From positions 16,780 through 80,779 of the forward strand of contig JANPLN010000062.1 of the NCBI GenBank assembly GCA_031426555.1: DNA of 64,000 bases, read 5' to 3'. Position numbers and translations under genes: made by a program. The notes beneath the pieces were generated by a model. The model worked only from the letters and a program-made list of their open reading frames with translations. It did no database searches and had not been told where the DNA came from. Source of the stretch: Bdellovibrionales bacterium. GTDB lineage: Bacteria > Bdellovibrionota > Bdellovibrionia > Bdellovibrionales > JAGQZY01. Below are positions 27,468-53,099 of this stretch, in pieces. The first letter of the stretch is position 1, and each line of letters opens with the position of its first letter.

Positions 27468-28367
27468 ATGAAGAAACCAAAAGTAGGATTCATCGGCCTT
27501 GGCGGAATGGGCACGGGGATGTGCAAAAAGCTTCTTGAAGCTGGACACCCTGTGACAGTTTTTAATCGAACGTCATCTAAGGCTGAATCGATCAGGCAGC
27601 TTGGCGCAGAGATCAAAGACACCCCAAGGCAGGTCGCAGAGAATGTGGAGATTCTGATCACGATGGTTTCCGATGACAAGGCTCTTAAAGACGTTGTTTT
27701 CGGAGATGATGGCGCACTAAAGGGACTACAGCCCGAGAGCATTCATATTTCCATGAGCACAATCAGTGAAAGTCTAGCTGAGACGCTCTCCAATGAACAT
27801 CTTAAAACCAAAACGCATCACATAGGTGCGCCTGTGTTTGGTCGCCCACCTGCTGCGGCGGCGGGCAAGCTCTATATAATTGCTGGGGGAACAGAAGCTG
27901 CCATCGAAAGGTGCAGGGACATCTTTACCAACCTCGGACAAAAGCTGGTTGTGGTCGGCACGGAACCGAAAAACGCACATCTCACAAAGATCCTAGGAAA
28001 TTTTATGCTGTTCTCAGCAATTGAAACCATGGCGGAAGCCATAGCGCACGCCAAAACCTCGGGCTTAGATGAGCGTATATTCTTAGAGGCCATGACTTCA
28101 ACAATTTTTAATTCTCCTCTCTACTCAAACTACGGAACGATGATGGTGGATAAAAATTTTCCAACGAGCGGAGCCGTAAGTTTTCAGCTTGCATTGAAAG
28201 ATGTGAGCCTCGTTTTGCAAAGCTCTGCAACTCAGAACACAACACTGCCCGTAGCAGAGTTTTTGCGAGGTCGATTGAAGCATGGTATTGAAACTGGGTA
28301 CGAAAATTATGACGTGAGCGCTTTGGTTGAGTTAGCGGCCGGGCTTCACAAAACTGAAAGGGTTTAA
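27468..28367 (+). CDS. NAD(P)-dependent oxidoreductase, beta-hydroxyacid dehydrogenase family
   Basis: GFIGLGGMG, FNRT, APVFG and KILGN motifs. Confidence 0.92.
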   Translation: MKKPKVGFIGLGGMGTGMCKKLLEAGHPVTVFNRTSSKAESIRQLGAEIKDTPRQVAENVEILITMVSDDKALKDVVFGDDGALKGLQPESIHISMSTISESLAETLSNEHLKTKTHHIGAPVFGRPPAAAAGKLYIIAGGTEAAIERCRDIFTNLGQKLVVVGTEPKNAHLTKILGNFMLFSAIETMAEAIAHAKTSGLDERIFLEAMTSTIFNSPLYSNYGTMMVDKNFPTSGAVSFQLALKDVSLVLQSSATQNTTLPVAEFLRGRLKHGIETGYENYDVSALVELAAGLHKTERV

Positions 28368-28371
28368 TCAA

Positions 28372-29163
28372 ATGGGAAAATTAGAATCACTGAATTTAAA
28401 AAAGCTAGTTGGAATTTTACTTGCTGGCTTTTTATCCGCCGAAGTTTGCTGGTCCGCCCAAAGCTCAGTGCCCGAAGCGAAACCGAAAGTTTTATTCGTA
28501 CTCACGAGCCATGACGAAATAAAAACGAAGGGTACTAAAACTGGATTTTGGCTTTCAGAGCTCACACATCCTTTTTTTGAATTCACAAACAACGGAGTCG
28601 ACACTGATATCGTCTCCATCGGCGGTGGTGATGCACCTATAGAGCCGCGAAGCCTAAAACTGGAAGATCCAGAAAATAAAAAATTCATGGCTGAGCATAA
28701 AAAACGACTCAAGAATCTGCGCCGATTAAGCTCGGTCGATGCAAAGAACTACAAAGCGATTTACTTTGTGGGCGGCCACGGTGCGATGTGGGATTTTGTA
28801 GATTCCAAAATTGTATCGTCGGTGGCTTTAGCAATCTATGATAACAGTGGCGTGGTCGCCGCCGTTTGCCACGGACCCGCCGCCTTCGCCAGTATTCAAA
28901 AGCCAGATGGAGTCTATCTTGTAAAAGGCAAGAAGGTCGCTGGTTTTTCTAACGATGAAGAAAAAGCGATCCAGCATGAGAAGCATGTGCCCTTTTTACT
29001 AGAAGATAAGCTTAAGCAAATTGGTGGCATCTACTCGAAAGCCAGTGTGTTTCAAGCTCACGTGGTGGTCGATCAACGGATTGTAAGTGGTCAAAATCCT
29101 GCATCCGCCAAAGCCGTAGCAAAAGAAGTCCTAAAACTAATCCAGCCTAAGGAAGCCTTATGA
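28372..29163 (+). CDS. DJ-1/PfpI (Hsp31-like) type 1 glutamine amidotransferase domain protein, exported
   Basis: Signal peptide; TGFWLSEL, GGHGAMWD, AVCHGP and SGQNPAS motifs. Confidence 0.92.
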   Translation: MGKLESLNLKKLVGILLAGFLSAEVCWSAQSSVPEAKPKVLFVLTSHDEIKTKGTKTGFWLSELTHPFFEFTNNGVDTDIVSIGGGDAPIEPRSLKLEDPENKKFMAEHKKRLKNLRRLSSVDAKNYKAIYFVGGHGAMWDFVDSKIVSSVALAIYDNSGVVAAVCHGPAAFASIQKPDGVYLVKGKKVAGFSNDEEKAIQHEKHVPFLLEDKLKQIGGIYSKASVFQAHVVVDQRIVSGQNPASAKAVAKEVLKLIQPKEAL

Positions 29164-38613: not shown

Positions 38614-39135
38614 ATGACTTCAAAAAATGAGAAATTTTTTCGTATTTCGCTAAGTATTTTTGCCCTCGAAACGGCAAAGGGCCACCTGCGTTGGAAAGTG
38701 ACTGAGCTTGAAAAAAAATCCAAGGTCAGCCGCACGCTCATTTATCGCTATTTTGGCAAAAACAAAGCTGAGATATTTAAGCATGGACTGGAAACATTTT
38801 TAAACGAATTTTATGGCTTTGCCGACGATCTCCAAAGCTCCTCTCGCTTTGCGGAAAAAATTGAAAGCGCACGGCGCTTGCTGAAAGAAAATAGAGATGC
38901 CGTGATTTTTTATCAAAAATGGCGCTTAACCGACTCGCCGATCAAAGATGTTTTTGTAAAAACGGAAGAAAAATTTAGAAAAAAAATTAAAAAGATGTTT
39001 CCGCACTTGAGCAGTGATGAAATTTTATTAGTTCATGCTTGCATGCATGGAGTTGTAACTTCGCCTTTTTTGGAGCCTAAGGACGCAAAAAAAATATTTG
39101 AAGCTTTGGTACAAAAAGGTTTGTTCAATAACTAG
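38614..39135 (+). CDS. TetR/AcrR family regulator
   Basis: KVTELEKKSKVSRTLIYRYFGKNK HTH. Confidence 0.85.
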   Translation: MTSKNEKFFRISLSIFALETAKGHLRWKVTELEKKSKVSRTLIYRYFGKNKAEIFKHGLETFLNEFYGFADDLQSSSRFAEKIESARRLLKENRDAVIFYQKWRLTDSPIKDVFVKTEEKFRKKIKKMFPHLSSDEILLVHACMHGVVTSPFLEPKDAKKIFEALVQKGLFNN

Positions 39136-39275
39136 AAATGTTTTCAAACAATTTAAGTTTACATTCTGGGAGCAAGTGGTATTGGCCCTGAGATCGCTGA
39201 AACAAGCATCGTTAATAACACAGCGCATCGGAAGCTGAGAGCGGACTGTTGGCAGATGATAAAACCAATACGACT

Positions 39276-40229
39276 TTAGAATTGGTAGCGCCCAATATTT
39301 GCAATATTACTCTTGTATGCCCAGTCCATAAATTCTCTAGAGCTCATTTCTGGTCCATTGTCACAACGGGTTTTCTTTGGAAGATTCTTTAATGATTCAA
39401 AAAAATCAATCATTGTTCGACTCGTAGTTGAATGCTCAGCGAGAAGTCCTGGCGTTTTTTTTGTGCAGTCGTCGACGATATTTAAAACTTTTAATCTCCT
39501 GTCATTCTCGAATCTGTCTGATACAAAATCAAAGGACCAAACCTCATTAGGGCGTGTCGTTTTATTGTGGGGCGCGCGAGTGACGGCCATTTGCTTTCGC
39601 CTCCTGAGATCTTTAATCTGCAAGCGTAGTTTTTTTATAATTTCTGGCCGTCCAATGTTCGCTCACAACAAGACCTTCGCGCTTTAGCAGAAAATGAATT
39701 CTCGGAAGACCAAATCTTGGGTGCTTCGTTGAAAGCTGCTTCTTTCGCAACTCAAGATCCTCATCTTTTGAGGTTCGTGGCTTGTAGGTCATCGTCGATC
39801 GATTCAGACTCAAAAAATTCGCTGTCCGGCGAACGCTCGCTTCGTAATTCAAAATCAGATACGAAGCGGATTTTCTCTGGGAATTGAGCCCTACCACTTT
39901 TTTTGAATTTACATTTTTCAACATGACAATATCAAAACTTAGATCCGCAACGAGTTTCTTATGTTTTGAATTCTCGTATTCCAATTCTTTCAATCGTTTC
40001 GCCTCGTTGACCGTCATGTTGGAAAATTTCTTTTTCCAATTATAAATCGTCGGCTCAGACACACCAAATTCGCGCTCGAGCGTTTTTGTGGTCTCGCCTT
40101 TTCGATTGCGAATTAGAACTTTTATGATCTGTTCTTCTGTGAACTTTCTTTTCATCTTGCACTCCCTTAGTCTAGGTTGACCCGGATTCACTCAAGTTCC
40201 AAACGGTCTACATTTTTGGGGTAGCCTCA
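39276..40229 (-). mobile_element. Truncated IS3-family (IS407-group-like) insertion sequence
   Basis: Left end TGAGGCTACCCCAAAAATGTAGACC at 40229; orfA MKRKFTEEQII from 40155; orfB with WSFDF and DNGPE but frameshifted near 39620 and cut before the catalytic Glu; no right IR seen. Confidence 0.9.
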
Positions 40230-40529
40230 CCTGCTGTTAGCACTCTTTATCTTTTTAATGTAACTAAGGAAAACAGTCCTATAGACTCAAGTGACACAAT
40301 GACTAACAAAGCTTGATAAGAATTTAAGTCGGGGCCAAAATATTCGTAGTTACCACGCCCTGAAGGTAAGTAAAACGTAAACTGTGATCAAAGTCTGTTC
40401 GCAGGACCATCTCAAAAACTTTGAAGAATATCGGCAAAAAGTAGTTCTACTTTCCAATTCAGGCTCTTTCAGTGTCCTAAACGAAAACTAGACTTCATTG
40501 TGTCTCATTTTCACCCGATAAAAAGCTAA

Positions 40530-43500
40530 ATGCATGAAAAGATTAATTTTATTAAAAGTCACATGCCTGATCTGTATGATTTCTCAATCTTACAAATCTT
40601 GTATACGCCCGACGAATTTGACGACGCACTAAATCGTTTTGATGTGCGTTCCTACGCAGCGGGTGAAGTAATCGCCCACGAAGGTGAAACTCCGGATGGT
40701 CTCCTAATTCCTCTTACTGGAAAAATTGAAATCTTCTCGAAGAGTTTTGAAGAGCTCGAAACAAGTGGGATGGTAGTTCCGTTTCGCAGTGTAAACACGT
40801 ATGTGGCTTTGCGCCAAAGACCGCTTAATTATTCAATTCGATTTGAGTCTGAGGGAGAGCTCCTTGTAGTCCCCTACGACGAGTTGCAAAAAAAGCTTCG
40901 CGAAAAACCAGAAGCAGCAAGATATCTTACCCACGTCACCGAAAATATCGAAATTCGTTCCATTGCCAAATCCTTAGAGTCTCTTGGTTGCTCGGTAGAT
41001 TTTAAAGTGGCACTCGTTGCTAGTTTTGAATTCCACAGTTACGAACCGCAAGAGTGGATTTTAGAATCAAATAAAACCGTGAAGCGCGCCTTTTACTTTT
41101 TTGAAGGCCAAATCATTACGCAGCAGAAGTTAAATAAGAGCGGGCGGTTATCCCAGTGGCCAATCCCTTGTCGAAGATGGTGTCTCTGGAGCGAAGCCAT
41201 GGAAGGTGCAGCTGTTCAAGGGGTGTACAAAGCCACCTCCCGCACCACCGGTGTTTCGATTTCCACCGAAAGCCTTTTATTGCTCAAAACAAAATTGCCA
41301 GATGATTTTAAGAAGCTAGAGAAAACCCTCACTGAAGGTTCCATTGCTGATATTTCAAGCTCGGAGATTCAGCAAGATTTTGATGTGGAACAGTTTATCA
41401 GTCAATCGACCACGAATCGTACCCCTCGTTTTAAAAGCTGGCCGTGGGTGGCTCAAGCGGACCTGATGGATTGTGGCCCAGCTTGTATGGCCATGGTTTC
41501 CCAGTATTTTGGAAAAAATACTCCACTTCAGTTTTGGCGCAATATTCTCGCGACAAATCGCTCCGGCACATCCCTTTTTGATCTTGCCTTCGTCTCCGAA
41601 AAAAATGGCTATATTTCAAGCGCACTTGGTGTTGAAAGAATCGAGGAGCTCGATCCCAAACTTTTACCCTTCATCGTTGTTCGACGCGACCATTACCTCG
41701 TGGTCTACGAAATAAAAAAAGACAAAATAGTGGTCGGCGATCCTGTCGCGGGGATTGTTAAACTCGATTTTGAGGAATTTTACGATGGGTTTGAACAGGC
41801 GGTACTAGTTTTAAAACCAAACGAAGAATTTGCTGCGCTTCCAGCGAGAAAATACAAATACAGCCATTATTTTACACTTCTTTTGGACTTTAAAGTGGAG
41901 TTGAGTTTAAGTTTTATGATCTCATTGATGATGATCATTCTGGGCTTAGGCACTCCTTTACTTACGCAAATTTTTCTAGACGATGTGCTCGTGCGCCGCG
42001 ATTTAAATATGATGTGGCTCGCTTCCGCAGGGGGACTACTCCTTGCGATCATCAATTCGTTCATGAGCTGGTCAAAAACCTATTATCAAAATTATTTAGC
42101 AACAAAACTCGATTACAAATTGAGCTCGATATTTTTGAAAAAAATAGTGAGTCTTCCGTACAGCTATTTTGTTGATCGCCACGTTGGTGACGTCATAACG
42201 CGCTTTCAAGAATTACAAAAATTAAAGGATTTTCTCCTGCATTCCAGTGAAAGCATCGTCCTTTCGTTTTTTAGCTTACTGATTTACGGCACAATTCTTT
42301 CTTTATATTCGCCTACGATTGCGATGACTGTTGTTGGCTCCATGCCTCTTTTTGCTTTTATATCTTGGATGACGGGACGAAAGTTAACCGTGATAAGTCA
42401 GGAAATTTTCACCAAAAACTCTGAGGTTGCAAGCTCACTCAACGACACGTTCAAAGGAATCGCAGTTATTAAATCTCTAGGTGGCGAGCTGGCTACGCGA
42501 TGGCGTTACCAAGAAAAATTAGTACAACTTTTAAAATCCGAAAGAGATTTCGAAATCAGCGCCAAATCTTTCGATGTTATTGTAAACTTTTATGTGGAAG
42601 TTGTTAATTATATCGTTTTAGGATTGTCTGTGTTTTTAGCGATTAAAGGGGAGCTATCACCGGGTCAGGCTATCGCCATTACCCTTTTAGCGAATCGAGT
42701 CTTCGGGCCTTTACTGCATATTGCCGATCAGTTTGGCGAAATCCAGCAAGTCTTTTCGGTGTTTGATCGATTGAACGATGTGTTTTTTACGCAGAGTGAA
42801 AATTCGAAAAAACGTGGTCACGTAAAAAAAGAAAAGCTATTGGGCGAAATAGAGTTTCGTGATGTGTGGTTTAGATACGGCGGCGAAGGGGCCGATTGGG
42901 TTCTAAATGGTCTTAACTTTAAGATAGAAGCAGGTACGAAATTGGCAATCGTCGGGCCAAGCGGCTCAGGCAAATCAACAGTGGTCGGTTTATTGACACG
43001 AATGTATGAGCCCACTCGGGGACAAATCTTTGTCGATGGAAGAGATTATTTGGACTATGATGTTAATTGGCTGCGCGAAAAAATTGGTGTTCTGTACCAA
43101 GAAAGTCAGCTTTTTAGTGGTTCGATTTCGGAGAACATTGCCTTTTCGGAACCCGAGATCAATCAAAATAAAGTTGTTATGGTTTGCCAACAAGCAAATG
43201 CGAGCCATTTTATCGAAAGTAAGCCCATGGGCTACAACTACCGTTTGTCGCACGGTGGACTGGGTCTTTCAGGTGGTGAAAAACAACGGGTAGCTCTGGC
43301 GCGAACGTTTTACAAGCAGCCCGATGTCCTTGTGCTGGATGAGGCCACGTCAGCACTTGATGGTGAGGCTGAATCAGAGTTGTTGTTAACGCTTAAAACT
43401 TCCACCAGCTCCAGAACCGTCATTAATATAGCACATCGTTACTCCACGGTCCTGTCGTCAGATCTTGTATTTGTTCTTGCTAAAGGAAGATTGGTTGGCT

Positions 43501-43583
43501 TTGGGAGCCACGCCGAACTGCAAGTTAACAACGAAATGTATAAAAAGCTATTCCCGCAAAGCCAAGAGGAGATAGCTGCATGA
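40530..43583 (+). CDS. Peptidase-containing ABC transporter (PCAT): 2x cNMP-like + C39 peptidase + TMD + NBD
   Basis: QADLMDCGPAC (C315), HY (H388) and GDP (D404) triad; GPSGSGKS, LSGGEKQR, LDEATSALD and AHR motifs. Confidence 0.95.
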   Translation: MHEKINFIKSHMPDLYDFSILQILYTPDEFDDALNRFDVRSYAAGEVIAHEGETPDGLLIPLTGKIEIFSKSFEELETSGMVVPFRSVNTYVALRQRPLNYSIRFESEGELLVVPYDELQKKLREKPEAARYLTHVTENIEIRSIAKSLESLGCSVDFKVALVASFEFHSYEPQEWILESNKTVKRAFYFFEGQIITQQKLNKSGRLSQWPIPCRRWCLWSEAMEGAAVQGVYKATSRTTGVSISTESLLLLKTKLPDDFKKLEKTLTEGSIADISSSEIQQDFDVEQFISQSTTNRTPRFKSWPWVAQADLMDCGPACMAMVSQYFGKNTPLQFWRNILATNRSGTSLFDLAFVSEKNGYISSALGVERIEELDPKLLPFIVVRRDHYLVVYEIKKDKIVVGDPVAGIVKLDFEEFYDGFEQAVLVLKPNEEFAALPARKYKYSHYFTLLLDFKVELSLSFMISLMMIILGLGTPLLTQIFLDDVLVRRDLNMMWLASAGGLLLAIINSFMSWSKTYYQNYLATKLDYKLSSIFLKKIVSLPYSYFVDRHVGDVITRFQELQKLKDFLLHSSESIVLSFFSLLIYGTILSLYSPTIAMTVVGSMPLFAFISWMTGRKLTVISQEIFTKNSEVASSLNDTFKGIAVIKSLGGELATRWRYQEKLVQLLKSERDFEISAKSFDVIVNFYVEVVNYIVLGLSVFLAIKGELSPGQAIAITLLANRVFGPLLHIADQFGEIQQVFSVFDRLNDVFFTQSENSKKRGHVKKEKLLGEIEFRDVWFRYGGEGADWVLNGLNFKIEAGTKLAIVGPSGSGKSTVVGLLTRMYEPTRGQIFVDGRDYLDYDVNWLREKIGVLYQESQLFSGSISENIAFSEPEINQNKVVMVCQQANASHFIESKPMGYNYRLSHGGLGLSGGEKQRVALARTFYKQPDVLVLDEATSALDGEAESELLLTLKTSTSSRTVINIAHRYSTVLSSDLVFVLAKGRLVGFGSHAELQVNNEMYKKLFPQSQEEIAA

Positions 43584-44803
43584 GTGATCAAAACCGCGAT
43601 GACGAAGTTACACAGCATTTAAGTTGGGGGGCCATAACTTTTATCGAGCGCCCTTCATCGAAGGTGCTGGCTTTTGCGCTTTTTTCCTTGGTGTTAGGTG
43701 CGGTCATTTTTTTAGCACTGTCCACAATTTTTAAAATTGACATCTCGGTCAAGGTTAGTGGACAAATCAACTCCATTTATGGGATTAAAATTGCGCAGGT
43801 GAGCAGAGATGGAATTATTGAACAGATCCTCGTTGCCAATGGCGATCTTGTTCGAAAAGAGCAAGTTATTGCAAAACTCAAGATCCAGGGAAGTAGCGAG
43901 TTAGAGCTTGAATCAGTTAAAAAGAATATTAAATTTTATCTAGGTCAGATTCAAAGCAAAAAAGTGCCAAATAAAATTGTGGTTCCGTGGCCATCAAAAG
44001 TGAGTGATTCGCCTCTGCGTAGTCAATTTGTAGATTGCGAAAAAAAGCTTTCTAATTATTTATATCTCCGTTCGATTGGGCTGCAAAATGTAAAGGCAGA
44101 GACCGAGCCCATAAGTCAGCGCTTGGAGTTTCTCGATCAACAATTAACTCGAATCAAAAGCTCAAGATACCGAGATGATCTTCTGATGCAAAAGTACACA
44201 ATTCAGGACGAGGTTGGTCGTTTAAAAACTCAATTAGCCACCATCGAAAATGGGATGCGTCTCAAACTTCAGGAGGCCGAAATCGAGATTGAGCGTAGTT
44301 TAGAAAATACCTTGGCATTTTTGGAGTTATTTTTAGAGGCCCACTTTATCAAGGCGCCGGTCGACGGAAAGGTGCTTCGCTTTCAGCAGTTTATTGGTTC
44401 CAACATCAAAGCTGGCGATGCATTTGCAAACCTTGTTGAGGATTCTTCACCCCTCGTTGCTGAGGTGCTGGTGCCATCACGTGATATTTCAAGGGTTAAG
44501 GAAAGTGCGAACGTTTGGGTCTCCATTGATGCCTATCCGCGAAATAAATACGGTTATTTTAAAGGCAAAGTAATTAGCATTGAAAAACTCAAATCAAGCG
44601 TTGTTTCAGCAAAAGCAAGCACTGACGAAATGGGATATCTGGCCAAGATTTCGATTGATCTCGACGACTATAGACGAAATCCTGCCAGCGCAAAGAAAAA
44701 GGTTCAGTTGATTCCCGGAATGAAAGTTGACGTCCAAATTGTGTGGAAAAAAACAAGTCTCATGGGACTGTTTAAAAGCAATTTTGTAAGCGAGGACGAT
44801 TGA
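43580..44803 (+). CDS. HlyD family membrane fusion protein
   Basis: N-terminal TM; VANGDLVRKEQ, IKAPVDG, DAYP...YG..KGKV and LIPGM motifs; ATGA overlap with the PCAT. Confidence 0.93.
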   Translation: MSDQNRDDEVTQHLSWGAITFIERPSSKVLAFALFSLVLGAVIFLALSTIFKIDISVKVSGQINSIYGIKIAQVSRDGIIEQILVANGDLVRKEQVIAKLKIQGSSELELESVKKNIKFYLGQIQSKKVPNKIVVPWPSKVSDSPLRSQFVDCEKKLSNYLYLRSIGLQNVKAETEPISQRLEFLDQQLTRIKSSRYRDDLLMQKYTIQDEVGRLKTQLATIENGMRLKLQEAEIEIERSLENTLAFLELFLEAHFIKAPVDGKVLRFQQFIGSNIKAGDAFANLVEDSSPLVAEVLVPSRDISRVKESANVWVSIDAYPRNKYGYFKGKVISIEKLKSSVVSAKASTDEMGYLAKISIDLDDYRRNPASAKKKVQLIPGMKVDVQIVWKKTSLMGLFKSNFVSEDD

Positions 44804-46038
44804 AGTGCACCGCCGTATTCTTCATTGCAATGTTTATTGGATGTGTTGCATCGGCGGCGCTCTCCGACTCCGTTAAAAGAATAGCTGATTGTTCACTTGT
44901 TAACTCGAAAAAATTCGAAATTACAGAAGTTCTTGACTCGCGCATTCGACTCCAACAAACGAAAAATCAGTACCGTCCGCGACTGCAGGGATCGGTGAGT
45001 TATGGTGAACAAATTTCCGAAGGAATCACTTTTGCCTCAAGCACGTATTCACTGGACGTAGCGATGCCTGTGTACAATGGCACTCTCAATGCTGATATGC
45101 AACTGGCCTCTAAGTCGATACATGTTTCGGAAGCTAGATTGATTCAAAAGACCTATCAAATGACGCTATCCGCTTTACAGGAGATCTTAGATTTATATCA
45201 AAAAGAACAAGAAATGAAAATATTATCCGAAGAAAAAACAAATTATGAAAAACTTGTGAGCACAACACAGGCTTCGAGTCATGTTGGCCTTTCGGACAAA
45301 GTAGACTCGCTTCTTGCACAGCTTGCATACGAAAAGACAGCGTCAAAAATCAAGTTTTTGGAGATCGAAATTGAAAAAACCTTAAAGATATTTGTCCAAC
45401 GTTACGGTTTTGCAATGACAAAGTTTAGCGAGAGCGAATTTGCAACCGATGAAGACAGCCGAAACGAGCTACTTACGCCTGAATTAAGACTGATGAATTC
45501 CGAGCTGTCGCTGGTTACCTCTGAGATTCAAAAGGAAAAGTCCTATCTTCTTCCTCAGGTAGATATTTCTGGCGGCGTTTTCTCACAGCTTGGGGTGCTT
45601 CCTTATAATGGTTACCGCATAGGGCTTTCTTTTGATTTTAGTGGACTACTTAGAAGTTCAAAAATAAAGTCATCAGTTGTGTTGAGGAAACAAGCGATTC
45701 AGGAACAAAGAGGGAGGATAGCTTCTATTTTGGGGGAGGAGCGTAAGCTCGATAGTATAGCAGTTGATGCTCTTGAAAAACAAATCAATGCTATGGGAGA
45801 TGCTATCAAGTTAGCCGAAAGAGCCACTCAACTTTCTCGTGAAAAGATCAGGCTGGGGCGCTCGCAATTTACTGAGTTTGCCGCAATACAGGATACAGTT
45901 CGCGGGCTTCGTATGGAGTTTTTGAACCTTCAGCAAAAACTGGCTGGAATATTAATTAAACGAGCTACCGAGCGCTATTTTTCGGAGTCTCAGCTTTCGC
46001 TTCACAATGCCGCTTGTTCACTTCTTATCGCAAATTAG
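44800..46038 (+). CDS. TolC family outer membrane efflux protein
   Basis: Signal peptide; two helical repeats with YRPRL and YLLPQV; third gene of the T1SS operon. Confidence 0.75.
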   Translation: MKCTAVFFIAMFIGCVASAALSDSVKRIADCSLVNSKKFEITEVLDSRIRLQQTKNQYRPRLQGSVSYGEQISEGITFASSTYSLDVAMPVYNGTLNADMQLASKSIHVSEARLIQKTYQMTLSALQEILDLYQKEQEMKILSEEKTNYEKLVSTTQASSHVGLSDKVDSLLAQLAYEKTASKIKFLEIEIEKTLKIFVQRYGFAMTKFSESEFATDEDSRNELLTPELRLMNSELSLVTSEIQKEKSYLLPQVDISGGVFSQLGVLPYNGYRIGLSFDFSGLLRSSKIKSSVVLRKQAIQEQRGRIASILGEERKLDSIAVDALEKQINAMGDAIKLAERATQLSREKIRLGRSQFTEFAAIQDTVRGLRMEFLNLQQKLAGILIKRATERYFSESQLSLHNAACSLLIAN

Positions 46039-46044
46039 TCGATT

Positions 46045-46385
46045 CTAGGTGGGATTAGACTGTAGTACAGCTCAAACGCAAAAATTCCTCATGCTTACTG
46101 TTGGTCTCATGCGCGCAGAGAATTTTTTAAACTCGAATCGCACGATCCTTCGGTGATTCCTTTTGGATACGATTGATAAACTTTTTAACATAGAGCAAAG
46201 GGCAAAAACGTTTGATTGATTAAGAATTTCAAGAACCACCGAAAGGGAAGAGACGGTCCAAGAGTTAAAGAAGCTGCTGCGTTCAGATTATGCTCGTTCT
46301 CGATTAGAGTCACAGAAGCGTGAGGCTATTTTATATATAGAGAAACGATGGGTCGGCTTTAAGATACTCTTCGAAGATTTTCGTA
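46045..46385 (+). mobile_element. IS66-family TnpC transposase remnant
   Basis: HAYCWSHARREFF (cf. CWAHARRKF), then after a frameshift IDKLFNIEQ, an in-frame stop, and EAILYIEKRW; boundaries approximate. Confidence 0.8.
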
Positions 46386-46618
46386 TTCCGCAAACTGGTG
46401 CTGATAACGCAGCCACTCTTTATACAATTCTCGTATAATGCAAAAAAAAGATATTGATCCAAGAAGCTATTTACAGCTCGTATTAAGTTGGATCGCTGAA
46501 GGCGCAGAAGCAAAAAACATACGAACATCTCTCGCGTAGGCCAAACCACGAAAGCGCTCCAATTCCAACCCGTGAATTACTCAGGAGATACCATGAAGCG
46601 CGCGTATTTAACGCTTTT

Positions 46619-46640
46619 AAAATGCCGAGCAACCTCGGCA
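46619..46640 (-). terminator. Intrinsic terminator of the Gly-rich peptide gene
   Basis: Minus strand TGCCGAG-GTTG-CTCGGCA-TTTT, 8 nt after the stop codon. Confidence 0.65.
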
Positions 46641-46648
46641 AGCATTAA

Positions 46649-46888
46649 TCAAAAGGATCCGTGGCCCATACTGCCATTTTTGTCGACTCCGCAGCGTCCA
46701 TCTTTTCCTTTTTTGCCCGAAGAACCGCATCCGTCTTTGTCTTTACTACCGCCGCCGCTTCTGCCACCGCCACCGCCGCTACGACCGCCACCGCCGCTAC
46801 GACCGCCACTATCACTGCTTTTTCCGTCGCCTCTACCGCCGCCAATAACTTTTTTTGCCTTCTCTTTTCCCATTTTTTTTAACATCAT
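46649..46888 (-). CDS. Double-glycine-leader precursor peptide with Gly/Ser/Lys-rich core (putative PCAT substrate)
   Basis: AAGGAG SD; leader MMLKKMGKEKAKKVIGG with L-15, M-12, A-7 and V-4; own terminator; adjacent to a C39 exporter. Confidence 0.78.
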   Translation of the reverse strand: MMLKKMGKEKAKKVIGGGRGDGKSSDSGGRSGGGGRSGGGGGRSGGGSKDKDGCGSSGKKGKDGRCGVDKNGSMGHGSF

Positions 46889-47060
46889 GTTCTCCTTGGT
46901 AAGTTTGACTTATACTTCGGTCAGTATCCCGATAAACTAAAGGAGACTTACCTCATTTTTTTTAAAATAAATCTGCATTCGTTTTCAAGCAAAAAAAACA
47001 ATCTCAAAAAAATGCATTTTCTTGTCATTTTGTATTGTTTCGGAACGCAAGTTTGTCAGT

Positions 47061-47432
47061 TTCATTGACATTGCTGGCATGGCGATGTGCAAAAAGCTTC
47101 TGGAAGCTGGACAACCTGTGACAGTTTTTAATCGAATGTCGTCTAAAGGTGATCTAACAGGAACTTTGGCTCAGAGATCAAAAACACCCCAAGGCAGGTC
47201 GTACAGAATGTGGAGATTTTCCGCCGAAGTTTGCTGGTCCGCTCAAAGCTCAGTGCCCGAAGCGAAACCCAAAGTTTTATTCGTACTCACGAGCCATGAC
47301 GAAATAAAAACGAGGGGTACTAAAACTGGATTTTGGCTCTCAGATCGTACACATCCTTTTTTTGAATTCACAAATAACGGAGTCGACACTGAAATCGTCT
47401 TCATTGGTGTGGGTGATGCAACTGGAGAGCCG
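47061..47432 (+). pseudogene. Degenerate chimeric copy of the 27468 oxidoreductase 5' end fused to the 28372 DJ-1 gene 5' part
   Basis: 47084-47218 aligns to 27518-27653 and 47220-47432 aligns to 28435-28647, with scattered substitutions and small indels. Confidence 0.9.
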
Positions 47433-47622
47433 AACCAGAACCAGCTGTAACGTAAAAAGATGTCGGAAGTTAAGGCCGCTGCTAAAACTGGCAACACCTT
47501 ATGATTGAGATGTGCGAAGTCAAAAGACCACTCTTGTAACTGACTCATTTTGAGACATATTAAGAAAAATACATTTGCCTCGGCTTTCAGGGACAAGGAT
47601 ACTGATTCCTTGGAGGATTTAT

Positions 47623-48006
47623 ATGAATTTTAAAACTATCAAGAAGATTGTTGCTGTTACTTTGTCTATCATGCTGTCGAATGTTCCCCAGATCTTTGCC
47701 GCTGAGCAGGCTCAATCCGAGCAAATGATTTCCACCATGACTTGGGTGGGCGAGCAGAACCGCGAACAAACCCTGGAAAAAGTGCAAGCGTTTTTGAGTC
47801 GTAGCGATATTGGCGCGCAGCTTGCACAAACTGGCTATTCTGCGAGTGAAGTGAAAGCTCGCATGGCAAGTTTAAGCGATGCAGAACTTCAGCATCTGTC
47901 GGCCGAAATGGACAAAGCCACTTATGGTGGTGATGGCGTTGGTGGAATTTTGATCGTTGTGGTACTTGTGTTGTTGATCATTTATCTTGCAAAGCGTATT
48001 CAATAG
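47623..48006 (+). CDS. PA2779 family protein
   Basis: GGAGG SD; signal peptide; ARMASLSDAEL...GG followed by a C-terminal TM helix; paired with the peptidase gene. Confidence 0.85.
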   Translation: MNFKTIKKIVAVTLSIMLSNVPQIFAAEQAQSEQMISTMTWVGEQNREQTLEKVQAFLSRSDIGAQLAQTGYSASEVKARMASLSDAELQHLSAEMDKATYGGDGVGGILIVVVLVLLIIYLAKRIQ

Positions 48007-48011
48007 GTTGA

Positions 48012-48863
48012 ATGATTTTTCGTTTGATTTATTGGCTATTTTTCGCTTCGATTGCACAGGCCGTCACTGCCTGTGCGACAGCTCCCCTACAGGCTAAGAC
48101 AGTTGTCGAACGCCCCCCCCAAGTTGCTCGCTCCCAAGTTATCGAAGCTGTTCCGTTTATCGAGCAACAAACCGCTCAATGCGGGCCCACCACACTTGCT
48201 ATGGTGCTGGACTATTACGGTACCCAGAGCCATCTGGATATTTTGCTGGTAAATCTAACGTCGCAAATTTTAACTCAGAGTAAAAATGGCTCTCTGCAAT
48301 CCAACATGATTGGTGGGGCCCGTCGCCAAGGCATGACGGCCATAACGTTGAAGGGCTTTAGCGATTTGCTGAGAGAAGTCGATGCCGGCCACCCGGTGAT
48401 TGTTTTTGAAAACTTAGCGCTGTCGTGGTGGCCGCAGTGGCACTATGCGGTGGTATATGGGTATGATTTAGATCAGAAGCTTCTATATTTGCATTCAGGA
48501 AAAGACAAAAACCTCACCCAGTCCTTTTCGCGCTTCGAAGCGGACTGGCGCTTGGGCGATTATTGGGGGCTTGTGGTGATTCCCCCTCAGGAGCTTTCGG
48601 CGTCGGCGGATGAGCTGGATCATATGAATTCAGCCGCCGTGTTGGAATCTTTAGCGAAGCCTGAGGCCGAAAAAGCTTACTCTGCCATTCTCTCGCGCTG
48701 GCCGCAAAGTTTAGGGGCGCATTTGGGTTTGGCAAATATTTATTTTTCTCAAGCGGATTATAAAAAATCAGTGCAAACTTTAAAACGTGCGCGGGCTTTT
48801 CATCCCGACTCGCAAACCCTAAACCACAATTACTCGGTGGCGGTGAAAAAGTTAAATGAATAG
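48012..48863 (+). CDS. PA2778 family C39-like cysteine peptidase lipoprotein with TPR
   Basis: Lipobox VTAC; VPFIEQ...QCGP, WHYAVVYGYD and LHSG motifs; C-terminal TPRs. Confidence 0.88.
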   Translation: MIFRLIYWLFFASIAQAVTACATAPLQAKTVVERPPQVARSQVIEAVPFIEQQTAQCGPTTLAMVLDYYGTQSHLDILLVNLTSQILTQSKNGSLQSNMIGGARRQGMTAITLKGFSDLLREVDAGHPVIVFENLALSWWPQWHYAVVYGYDLDQKLLYLHSGKDKNLTQSFSRFEADWRLGDYWGLVVIPPQELSASADELDHMNSAAVLESLAKPEAEKAYSAILSRWPQSLGAHLGLANIYFSQADYKKSVQTLKRARAFHPDSQTLNHNYSVAVKKLNE

Positions 48864-50778: not shown

Positions 50779-52611
50779 TTACGAGGTAATTTCCTGCAGC
50801 TTTTTTTCGATTTTTGTGACTTCTTGCTGTTTGGACCACATTTCGTAGTACTCACCTTTTTTATTTAACAGGTCTTCGTGCTTGCCGCGCTCAAGGATTT
50901 TTCCGTCGTTTAAAACAATAATCTCGTCGGCGTCCACCACGGTGGAAAGTCGATGGGCGATGATGAGGGTGGTTTTATGAACGGAGATTTCGCGCAGGGA
51001 CTGTTGGATTTCTTTTTCTTTATGGGTGTCTAAGGCGCTGGTGGCTTCGTCGAAAATCAAAATTGGTGGATTTTTTAAAATCGTACGAGCGATGGCCACC
51101 CGTTGTTTTTCGCCGCCCGACAGTTTCAAACCGCGCTCTCCCACTGGGGTTTCGTATTTCTGGCTAAGGGATATAACGAAATCATGGATCTTAGCCATTT
51201 TGGAGGCTTGATGCATTTCGGTCTCGGTGGCCGAGGGCTTGCCGTACAGGATGTTGTAGCCGATGGAGTCGTTAAACAGTACGGTGTCCTGCGGGACAAC
51301 GCCGATGGCTTTGCGCACTGATTTTTGCGTGACCGATTTTAAGCTCTGTCCGTCGATTTTAATGTCGCCACTTTGCAAATCGTAAAAGCGAAATAACAGC
51401 CTCGAAATGGTCGACTTACCAGAGCCGCTGGCGCCCACAATGGCCAGGGTTTTACCGGCATCAACTTTAAAGCTGATGCCTTTAAGAATTTGTCGATCCG
51501 GGTTGTAACCAAAAAACACGTTTTCGAATTCGATGGCGCCAGCGGTGACATTGATATCGGGGGCGCCCTCTTGATCCGCCACTTCGGAGTGCACGCCGAT
51601 AAGCTCGAACATTTTATCCATGTCGATAAGACTGTTTTTAATTTCGCGGTAAACGAAGCCCAAGAAATTGAGCGGTAGATACAATTGAATTAAAAACGTA
51701 TTGATCAAAACAAAGTCACCCACGGTGTAGGTGTTATTGACGATTCCCTGGCCCGTCATCCACATCACCGCTACCAAACCGATGCCTATGATGGTAGATT
51801 GGATAATATTTAACAACGACAAACTCATTTGGCTTGTAACAGCAGCGAGCTCGTACTTTGCTAGGGAAATATCGTAGCGGCTGTATTCGTGCTCTTCATT
51901 GCCAAAGTATTTAACGGTTTCGAAGTTGAGCAAGCTATCGATAGCTTTGGTGTTGGCGGAGCTTTCGGCGCTGTTCATGTTTTTTCTAAACTTGGTGCGC
52001 CACTCGGTAACCGCGATGGTGAGGAAGATGTAAATAAAGATGGTCACAAATATAATGGCGCCGAAGACCAAATTAAAATGATAAATCACCGCACCAGTCA
52101 CGAGCACAATCTCAAACAGGGTGGGCAGGATGTTAAAGGTCATAAACTGCAGCACAAACTGAATCCCACGAGTTCCCCGCTCGATAACGCGCGATAAGCC
52201 GCCTGTGTGGCGCGACAAATGAAACTGCAGCGAAAGCCCGTGCAAATGTTTAAAGGTATTTAAAGCGATGGTTCGCTGGGCATGTTGGCCGACTTTGACA
52301 AAAATAAAATCGCGAAGTTCGCCAAACACAGCAACTAGCACACGGGCGAAGCCATAAGACAGTAGCAGTCCTATGGGAAGGGTCATGGCATTGAGGGGTT
52401 TTGAAAAAACATCCACCGCATCTTTTAAAAGAAACGGAACATACATGTTTAGGACTTTAGCTAAAATCAAAAAGACAACAGCCGCAATCACTCGCAAACG
52501 CAAATCCCAGCGCTTTTCGGGCCACAGATAAAACCCAAGCACTTTGAGAGTTTTTAAATTGTTAGTTTGATCGCTTTCGCTATTGGGATTGAAGGCCTGA
52601 CGCATCTTCAA
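50779..52611 (-). CDS. ATM1/ABCB7-type ABC transporter (permease + ATPase)
   Basis: FHLSRHTGGLSRVIERG, DSLLNFETVKYF, PLNFLGFVYRE and VGERGLKLSGGEKQR motifs. Confidence 0.93.
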   Translation of the reverse strand: MKMRQAFNPNSESDQTNNLKTLKVLGFYLWPEKRWDLRLRVIAAVVFLILAKVLNMYVPFLLKDAVDVFSKPLNAMTLPIGLLLSYGFARVLVAVFGELRDFIFVKVGQHAQRTIALNTFKHLHGLSLQFHLSRHTGGLSRVIERGTRGIQFVLQFMTFNILPTLFEIVLVTGAVIYHFNLVFGAIIFVTIFIYIFLTIAVTEWRTKFRKNMNSAESSANTKAIDSLLNFETVKYFGNEEHEYSRYDISLAKYELAAVTSQMSLSLLNIIQSTIIGIGLVAVMWMTGQGIVNNTYTVGDFVLINTFLIQLYLPLNFLGFVYREIKNSLIDMDKMFELIGVHSEVADQEGAPDINVTAGAIEFENVFFGYNPDRQILKGISFKVDAGKTLAIVGASGSGKSTISRLLFRFYDLQSGDIKIDGQSLKSVTQKSVRKAIGVVPQDTVLFNDSIGYNILYGKPSATETEMHQASKMAKIHDFVISLSQKYETPVGERGLKLSGGEKQRVAIARTILKNPPILIFDEATSALDTHKEKEIQQSLREISVHKTTLIIAHRLSTVVDADEIIVLNDGKILERGKHEDLLNKKGEYYEMWSKQQEVTKIEKKLQEITS

Positions 52612-52739
52612 TATATGCCATTTATTTATACGCTATTCAACTGCTGTGCCGATAATATTTCCATTGAAACTGTAAAAAAACTAAAGGGCGGAGTGTTGCC
52701 CTTTAGTTTCCAAATGAAGCTACCTAAAATAGGGAAGCA

Positions 52740-52925
52740 TTACTCTTTTGAAGTAGAGCTCGAACTGCCGTATGCAGATTTACTTTGATCAGTCTTGCTT
52801 GCTTCAGAAGTCTTGTTTCCATCTACGCTCTTTTTTTCTCCGTCTTTCGACATCTCTTTGTCTTTAGAGCCTGCGTTGGCATTTTGGTTACCTTGATTGC
52901 CTTGGTTTCCTTGATTATTACTCAT
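52740..52925 (-). CDS. 61-aa hydrophilic low-complexity protein (NQG repeats)
   Basis: AGGAGG SD before ATG 52925; MSNNQGNQGNQGNQNANAGSKDKE... Confidence 0.7.
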   Translation of the reverse strand: MSNNQGNQGNQGNQNANAGSKDKEMSKDGEKKSVDGNKTSEASKTDQSKSAYGSSSSTSKE

Positions 52926-53099
52926 ACCGTTTCCTCCTGGTATACAGCCGTGCATTGTACAGGGCTGTGGGTTTGTTCTCCATGGTGCACGAACCATTTC
53001 GCACACTCGTGGTTTTTTTTCTCTTTAATGAGGTAAAAAAGGGACGCTTTTATTAAACTTTGAGTTCCTTCGTTACCTGAGACACACAGTTGTATTCTA

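Follow-up and report, generated by a model that had tools for sequence, protein, structure and literature searches.

The stretch of DNA analysed here, called the window below, comprises 64,000 nucleotides of a Bdellovibrionales bacterium (assembly GCA_031426555.1, contig JANPLN010000062.1, positions 16,780 to 80,779). It carries an operon for a long-type ATP-binding cassette transporter with a peptidase domain (PCAT), a HlyD-family adaptor and a TolC-like channel, and a convergent gene for a small glycine-rich peptide with a double-glycine (GG) leader. This peptide is very probably the cognate cargo of the transporter, to judge by its leader and by what lies beside orthologous transporters, and it would likely be exported in the manner of a class II microcin. 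With the precursors of its relatives it appears to form an apparently undescribed family of secreted peptides, in which a lineage-specific leader precedes freely swapped cores. An earlier note on this DNA had already described a coupled operon with an intact C39 triad and, 0.6 kb away, a convergent gene whose leader ends in VIGG, and open reading frames (ORFs), Pfam and alignment agree with it. Its proposal that the small gene encodes the cognate cargo is now supported by orthologous loci and a leader profile. Genomes are denoted below by G numbers, the one holding the window being G000.

The transport operon and the peptide gene

Each gene of the operon overlaps the next by 4 bases, and all three are intact and full length (Table 1). 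Pfam finds in the transporter a cyclic nucleotide (cNMP)-binding domain at residues 40-124 (PF00027, E 2e-9), Peptidase_C39 at 305-432, ABC_membrane and ABC_tran. The C39 domain has its Cys-His-Asp triad (C315/H388/D404) and Q309 in place and aligns with the peptidase domain of PCAT1, which is also the best fold match of the transporter. Its fusion to membrane and ATPase domains is that of a PCAT, and the N-terminal extension of about 300 residues carrying the cNMP-binding domain is that of the long (cNMP/CAP_ED) type. The best NCBIfam transporter models all fall under their cut-offs. A second, degenerate cNMP-like domain is likely at about 167-255, as suggested by a beta-rich pattern in a full-length structure model of low confidence (mean pLDDT 59); Pfam gives no match in this region. 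By tblastn, the protein is the sole C39-fused transporter in its genome. The catalytic Cys and His are kept in all 14 aligned transporters and the Asp in 13. The closest orthologues are those of G003, a genome of the same genus (transporter 74%, HlyD protein 69% and TolC-like protein 60% identical); dN/dS in the comparison with G003 is uninformative, with dS saturated.

The peptide gene ends 611 bases from the TolC stop. AAGGAG stands 3 bases ahead of the first ATG and 6 ahead of the second (46885), a strong ribosome-binding site, and frames overlapping the gene have no comparable one. The second ATG may be the true start, giving 78 residues and an identical core of 62. The leader terminates in VIGG at G17, with the hydrophobic residues M6, A11 and V14 at -12, -7 and -4 relative to it; these are the leader positions at which C39 domains read hydrophobic residues (PMC10885120). 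The core contains 26 Gly (42%), 11 Ser, 7 Lys, 6 Asp, 5 Arg and 2 Cys, the latter at 37 and 49; it has a net charge of +6 and a mass of about 5.66 kDa, and it ends in Phe. It is strongly hydrophilic: the grand average of hydropathy (GRAVY) is -1.34, the best 19-residue window scores -0.98, and non-glycine hydrophobic residues number 3 of 62 (5%).

An 18-bp unit encoding GGRSGG recurs in 3.7 copies at 46744-46809. In one DNA run, possibly of the source sample, a single contig connects the operon with the 3' half of the peptide gene and breaks at the repeat, which interrupts the read graph, so the repeat copy number is without an independent check. Among the 29 Gly codons of the gene, three different bases occur at the third position, and five differences in base sequence between the repeat units are silent only in the peptide frame, a partly circular observation as the units were picked by protein motif. 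This codon pattern would lend the coding status of the frame modest backing.

No family in Pfam or NCBIfam matches the peptide ORF, no homologue of the core was found at E<=1 among 7,998 candidates, and the last 38 core residues have no match in the 383 other genomes of the order. Searching with a profile of 12 precursors gave six proteins, all of them already members of the alignment, and 10 representatives, three of which are new leader-bearing peptides and none of which has a glycine-rich core. The ESM Atlas recognition score of the peptide, 1952, lies below the bar of 2300 (best match 0.81). Glycine-rich DNA matches in G001 and G003 were rejected, being low-complexity tails of an RNA-binding protein. 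Rfam has no match in 39000-48000.

Table 1. Coordinates of the features in and around the transport operon (positions in the window)
Feature	Position	Strand	Details
cNMP+C39 ABC transporter (long-type PCAT)	40530-43583	+	1017 aa; Pfam and catalytic triad
HlyD-family membrane fusion protein	43580-44803	+	407 aa; PF13437 (HlyD_3) and TIGR01843
TolC-like outer membrane channel	44800-46038	+	412 aa; PF02321 (OEP)
Double-glycine precursor gene	46649-46888	-	79 aa; lysine-rich leader of 16-17 aa and core of 62 aa
Strain-specific island, 8.3 kb	39129-47427	.	holds operon, peptide gene, insertion-sequence remnants and broken duplicate
Broken IS3-family element, upstream of operon	39276-40230	-	HTH_Tnp_1 and rve (Pfam)
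Broken IS66 transposase, 3' part, with stops and frame changes	46066-46580	+	PF03050 in two frames; six-frame reading
Broken fused duplicate of oxidoreductase and DJ-1/PfpI gene parts	47076-47432	+	blastn; near right edge of island

The leader profile

The link between peptide and transporter was examined with a simple profile covering the 14 residues that precede the cut site; the leaders of five relatives went into it, with the window peptide excluded. The window leader ranks first among 16,732 GG, GA or GS candidates in its own genome, with a score of 32.0 vs. 28.0 for the next, and this match is beyond chance. No better cargo candidate was found in that genome; the runner-up leader, at 52567-52788 of the window, was rejected, as the corresponding frame in G003 has stops and loses the GG. 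When each training leader was left out in turn, four of the five beat the whole background and the fifth lost only to the window peptide. Outside the training set, in five genomes (G232, G046, G635, G776 and G779), the profile picks leaders scoring 29.4-40.2 near the transporter, the one in G232 having been seen by eye before the scan; all other candidates in the 19 scanned stretches score 19.6 or less. The G635 peptide was also found blind on the transporter contig by a hidden Markov model (HMM) search (E 0.003). A 21-position leader HMM run over 384 genomes returned the five training members and two weak others (G135, G050); it missed the G046 peptide and is therefore insensitive. Across 12 aligned precursors, Lys(-6) and the GG turned out to be invariant and the cores unrelated.

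Orthologous loci

Orthologues were sought with the N-terminal 450 residues of the transporter at E<=1e-25. Matches were obtained in 10 of the 383 other genomes of the order, in five more from a 401-genome sample of the phylum and in four more among 237 genomes of the G448 family. One metagenome contig (L053) of the 80 returned was added; the other 79 metagenome loci were dropped, as only L053 covers the N-terminal extension. The total is 20 loci. The same query found only seven proteins at E<=1e-30 among 7,996 candidates, and no plasmid record covers 80% of it.

A small lysine-rich ORF with a GG leader is present at 11 of the 20 loci, 62-8112 bases from the transport block (G003, G030, G190, G422, G643, G232, G046, G635, G776, G779 with four such ORFs, and G448, whose peptide frame has no ATG, GTG or TTG start). 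As for the nine loci without one, the G004 locus is broken, G313 is in pieces of 2-3 kb and was not scored, the contig ends near the operon in G255, G259, G328, G670 and L053, and G790 and G737 represent a distant two-transporter type with no leader above 14. The earlier note had held that a different substrate at these loci, such as a large RTX-like protein, would speak against the peptide. No frame with at least two RTX-like nonapeptides was seen in 26 stretches (345 kb) covering the orthologous loci, nor in G000; RTX-type secretion pairs a large linked cargo bearing GGxGxD nonapeptide repeats with an inactive C39-like domain, and the window has no such cargo and retains the catalytic Cys of its C39 domain.

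In a quick tree, the window and G003 are sisters and stand beside the enzyme-free loci of G232, G448, G776 and G779 and the truncated one of G670. Three of these genomes belong to one genus and have the transporter at the same site with differing peptides: four in G779 (L163:8474-9977), one in G776 (L162:6586-6708) and the one lacking a standard start in G448 (L046:15150-15290), which would suggest fast core turnover. Several loci have peculiarities of their own. The core of the G643 precursor (L051:2204-2398) consists of three near-identical Cys-containing repeats. The G422 precursor (L052:3754-3939) forms with P0014 and P0016 a sub-group with related cores, each closing with an aromatic residue; no other conserved core family was seen. 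In G790 (L164:3740-12604) and G737 (L165:5997-12691), two long transporters face apart and no GG leader was found; G255 has two adjacent divergent transporter copies. In G670, the gene at L048:6065-6961, downstream of TolC, has a match to the Pfam domain ATLF (zinc-metallopeptidase-like; E 2e-12).

Microcin features and immunity

The export machinery of the window, a PCAT with adaptor and TolC, is that of class IIa microcins. Mature class IIa microcins have 5-10 kDa and no modification other than disulfides; the window core would have 5.66 kDa and has two Cys, and its unmodified state is predicted from the missing enzymes. Class II microcins are portrayed as highly hydrophobic, and their immunity gene lies next to them (PMC10233263, PMC9746304); the microcin table cited for hydrophobicity seems, from its row for microcin B17, to count Gly as hydrophobic. 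The window locus shows neither an adjacent small membrane immunity protein nor a hydrophobic core acting on the inner membrane, and because these two defining features are missing the peptide is not filed as a class II microcin. Class IIb microcins have a Ser/Gly-rich C-terminus ending in Ser; the window core ends in Phe, and siderophore-attaching genes are absent from the island, which was the extent of the search for them. The label "microcin/bacteriocin-like" given in the earlier note thus finds no support beyond the export machinery.

The same note saw no evident immunity gene, and indeed none of the 19 ORFs of at least 30 aa in 45900-47600 is a candidate. Only two of them have a strongly hydrophobic 19-residue stretch; both are other frames over the peptide gene, and neither has a clear ribosome-binding site. 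A 66-codon Ala/Val-rich frame at 46645-46845 on the minus strand, frame-shifted over the core, has one very hydrophobic stretch. It probably arises as a side effect of the Gly codons, but an immunity gene embedded there is conceivable. GG-leader bacteriocins without an immunity protein are known in Bacteroides (PMC10233263).

Proposed mechanism

We propose, with about as much confidence as doubt, that the three genes form a one-step exporter and that the core is secreted unmodified, probably as a strain-specific competition peptide. The peptide would be translated from its own ribosome-binding site, which is seen in the sequence. Its leader would dock in the peptidase through M(-12), A(-7) and V(-4), and C315 would cleave after the GG (Gly17), as expected from PCAT biochemistry. 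The ATPase, the HlyD protein and the operon's own TolC would then carry the core across both membranes, as in the class II microcin system; export by the microcin V machinery is largely independent of cargo chemistry and tolerates almost any small cargo (PMC10231218). The released core would be flexible and cationic, contain no more than one disulfide (Cys37-Cys49) and be unmodified, because the genome yielded no known tailoring enzyme. The cut after Gly17, secretion in one step and an unmodified product are all predictions; that the peptide is exported unmodified today we hold to be slightly favoured.

The last steps are weaker. With no membrane-inserting segment, the core may work through a receptor or anionic targets of other cells rather than by forming pores, which is the weakest step of the scheme; such non-pore action would explain the missing immunity gene. 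By analogy only, the cNMP region may gate export by a nucleotide signal, as proposed for HetC. Both the competition role and the nucleotide gating are suggested tentatively. Behind the conserved leader, the mobile cassette would swap cores. If export does take place, we incline a little towards antagonism over signalling.

Several points weigh against this proposal. The peptide gene is convergent to the operon and separated from TolC by a broken IS66, and a simple consensus scan of the minus strand gave no match for a promoter or terminator of its own. The closest orthologue has, in G003, five candidate tailoring genes that G000 lacks. Loci decay, as the transporter fragment of G004 and the startless peptide frame of G448 illustrate. 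At -3 the window leader carries Ile, in contrast to the Lys or Arg of the 11 other aligned leaders, and the five training leaders were chosen by eye after the window leader had been seen. Finally, selection on the core is not measurable, because the core has no relative in any search.

The island and its insertion-sequence remnants

The operon and the peptide gene lie within one island, which the earlier note had missed along with its broken IS3 and IS66 elements. Homology to G001 halts at 39128 and resumes near 47450, and G002 and G003 also lack the stretch at this site. The GC content of the operon genes is 42-43% vs. 45-49% in four window genes outside the island. The end of the IS3 remnant at 40151-40230 matches two G001 contig ends. 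The IS66 remnant probably has its right end near 46580, where we take TTAC at 46577 to be the end of the element. The broken duplicate at the right edge is 88-92% identical to window positions 27510-27653 and 28432-28647, whose intact copies were identified by Pfam; a fused broken copy at the island edge is a sign of local rearrangement. In G003 the operon is found at another site, beside NAD kinase, and in G004 only a broken transporter fragment is left; the cassette therefore moves and sometimes decays.

Tailoring enzymes

The earlier note had seen no maturase, which is borne out for the families looked for across the whole genome; it had overlooked the tailoring enzymes that accompany some relatives. 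The genome itself is 100% complete. YcaO (PF02624), as expected for azole peptides, was not found in G000 (the control was found in 5 of 14 genomes); nor was the MvdD-type ATP-grasp (PF21068) of graspetides (positive control G030) or the DUF4135 of lanthipeptides (positive control G190). LANC_like was not found in G000 in a search without a positive control. The candidate tailoring proteins of G003, G190 and G030 have no tblastn match in G000. The core Cys motifs presumably resemble EGKCG repeats, which had raised the idea of modification by an MNIO enzyme; it was rejected, as PF05114 (MNIO) was not found in G000. No SPASM domain exceeds the cut-off in G000, and 32 radical SAM matches exist elsewhere in the genome, one of which might still modify the peptide in trans. 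About 11 radical SAM matches, together with membrane proteins and, by eye, a carbamoyltransferase-like gene, crowd into 42 kb at G000:C15:171600-213300.

At 4 of the 11 peptide-bearing loci (G003, G190, G030 and G635), known or candidate tailoring genes sit with the peptide. In G003 the precursor is followed by five candidate tailoring genes without family match, two of them with HExxH motifs and two with homologues in G190; the G190 locus has DUF4135, TauD, JmjC and nitroreductase genes. The GG precursors of G003 (L016:8589-14613) and G190 (L034:10743-18807) lie by a shared set of proteins without Pfam or NCBIfam match, namely a 173/176-aa pair (36% identical) and HExxH-motif proteins; these are candidates for undescribed enzymes of peptides that are made on ribosomes and modified after translation (RiPPs). 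In G030 (L018:16991-19265), the transporter is divergent from genes for a thioredoxin-like membrane protein, an MvdD-type ATP-grasp ligase and a four-Cys precursor, which makes a graspetide locus probable. The G635 precursor (L050:4975-15417) stands amid glycosyltransferases and 2-oxoglutarate (2OG) oxygenases, and its product is possibly a glycosylated, hydroxylated peptide. At the other seven loci, ORF reading and partial Pfam scans revealed no evident tailoring enzyme; four of these contigs are short or end near the operon. The clearest enzyme-free loci, G776 and G448 of the sister clade, have the peptide ORF alone between the transporter and housekeeping genes.

Alternative explanations

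The insertion-sequence remnants, together with the tailoring enzymes of relatives, mean that a truncated RiPP locus has to be kept in consideration. The precursor would then be the cognate one, the tailoring enzymes between TolC and the peptide gene would have been removed by IS66 insertion and deletion, and at most an unfinished, inactive core would be exported. The IS66 remnant, the 3' part of a transposase, extends from about 30 bases after the TolC stop to about 70 bases past the peptide stop, where co-transcribed enzymes would lie; in G003 this gap is filled by the precursor and five genes, two with HExxH motifs, and enzymes are also carried by G190, G030 and G635. Ser, Lys, Asp and Cys, which YcaO and ATP-grasp enzymes use, are abundant in the core, and its composition is nearer to microcin B17 than to class II microcins. 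However, all three transport genes have stayed full length, and most peptide-bearing loci (7 of 11) show no evident tailoring enzyme. Moreover, the window core is unrelated to the G003 core and need not share its enzymes, and the DNA upstream of the window peptide is unlike the G003 precursor region. On balance we consider truncation unlikely, though it is the alternative to be taken most seriously.

The peptide could also be a secreted signal or a kin-recognition tag sensed by the producer itself, with the cNMP region tying its release to the nucleotide state. The lack of an immunity candidate, the low GRAVY of the core and the variation of cores between strains agree with this, and HetC, the cNMP-PCAT that has been characterised, functions in development and in vitro binds ppGpp (PMC10986499). 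Yet the island holds no receptor or regulator gene, and the patchy spread (10 of the order's 383 other genomes) is at least equally compatible with an accessory weapon. At 62 residues the core is also long for a peptide pheromone. A signalling role thus seems improbable. Finally, the small ORF could have arisen by chance as a low-complexity frame, or have nothing to do with the transporter, whose cargo would then lie elsewhere or be lost. This would fit the lack of core homologues, the ESM Atlas score and the unchecked repeat copy number, but is very improbable given the first rank of the leader, the strong ribosome-binding site, the lack of a better cargo candidate, the varied Gly third bases and the (partly circular) silent differences between repeat units.

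Comparison with known systems and significance

The preferred reading, one-step export of an unmodified core, has its nearest model in microcin V (CvaB PCAT, CvaA adaptor, TolC, CvaC precursor and Cvi immunity protein). Both systems have a transporter with the C39 triad, a HlyD-type adaptor, a TolC-like channel and a short GG precursor, as well as a glycine-rich core of 5-10 kDa with a possible disulfide (PMC9746304, PMC10233263). Unlike microcin V, the window system has the 300-residue cNMP extension, its own TolC in the operon, a lysine-rich leader and a strongly hydrophilic core; it has no adjacent immunity candidate and no likeness to Pfam or NCBIfam families. RiPPs exported by PCATs (graspetides, lanthipeptides, glycocins and others) share the GG leader with hydrophobic residues at -4/-7/-12. 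Relatives of the window pair the same transporter with MvdD-type ATP-grasp, 2OG oxygenases or glycosyltransferases, whereas the window locus and genome lack the tailoring families searched. Microcin B17 has a core likewise dominated by Gly, with Ser and Cys (60.5% Gly vs. 42% in the window). It is a class I microcin without a GG leader, however, and the window genome has no YcaO and its core is charged (7 Lys, 5 Arg, 6 Asp).

The earlier note recognised no characterised family for the core, and no homologue or family match has come to light; the cNMP-PCAT architecture itself is already in print. Cyanobacterial long-type C39 transporters, including HetC of Nostoc, have the same domain order as the window transporter and a similar size (PMC10986499, PMC3140520), and the long type has been described there together with HlyD (PMC3140520). 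HetC, whose catalytic Cys is residue 347, depends in vivo on its cNMP domain, which in vitro binds ppGpp (PMC10986499). It is not accompanied by an adaptor and its substrate is not known, whereas in the window adaptor, channel and GG precursor are linked. The window transporter and its relatives form a separate Bdellovibrionota group with respect to the cyanobacterial long type, lack a SurA-like gene, and have precursors that are not of the NHLP or Nif11 type. The literature searched, to which subscription journals, supplements and the genome-mining tables there did not belong, holds no description of double-glycine peptide export in Bdellovibrio relatives; PMC8692599 and PMC12186529 mention these bacteria only in passing.

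Should the system prove active, strain-specific ribosomal peptides would be among the secreted products of this lineage, with a bearing on competition or kin recognition. One transporter type with named candidate substrates, of which HetC has none, also offers a testable set for the role of the cNMP extension. Where new chemistry is concerned, the precursor-enzyme pairs of relatives without Pfam or NCBIfam match are arguably more promising than the window locus. As a bolder and rather doubtful idea, the loci might together constitute a plug-and-play arsenal of Bdellovibrionota's own: a mobile, nucleotide-gated exporter and a lysine-rich leader with cores that are freely swapped and in some cases completed by enzymes outside all known families (the HExxH-like proteins of G003 and G190). 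The window would then contribute an unmodified, immunity-free, glycine-rich cationic peptide that acts on prey or rival predators other than by pore formation.

Other features of the window

A small low-complexity ORF with NQG repeats and without family match lies at 52740-53006 on the minus strand. Outside the island, a PA2779/PA2778 pair at 47575-48863 is conserved in relatives and belongs to the backbone; it includes a stand-alone C39 peptidase with TPR of the PA2778 type (48012-48863).

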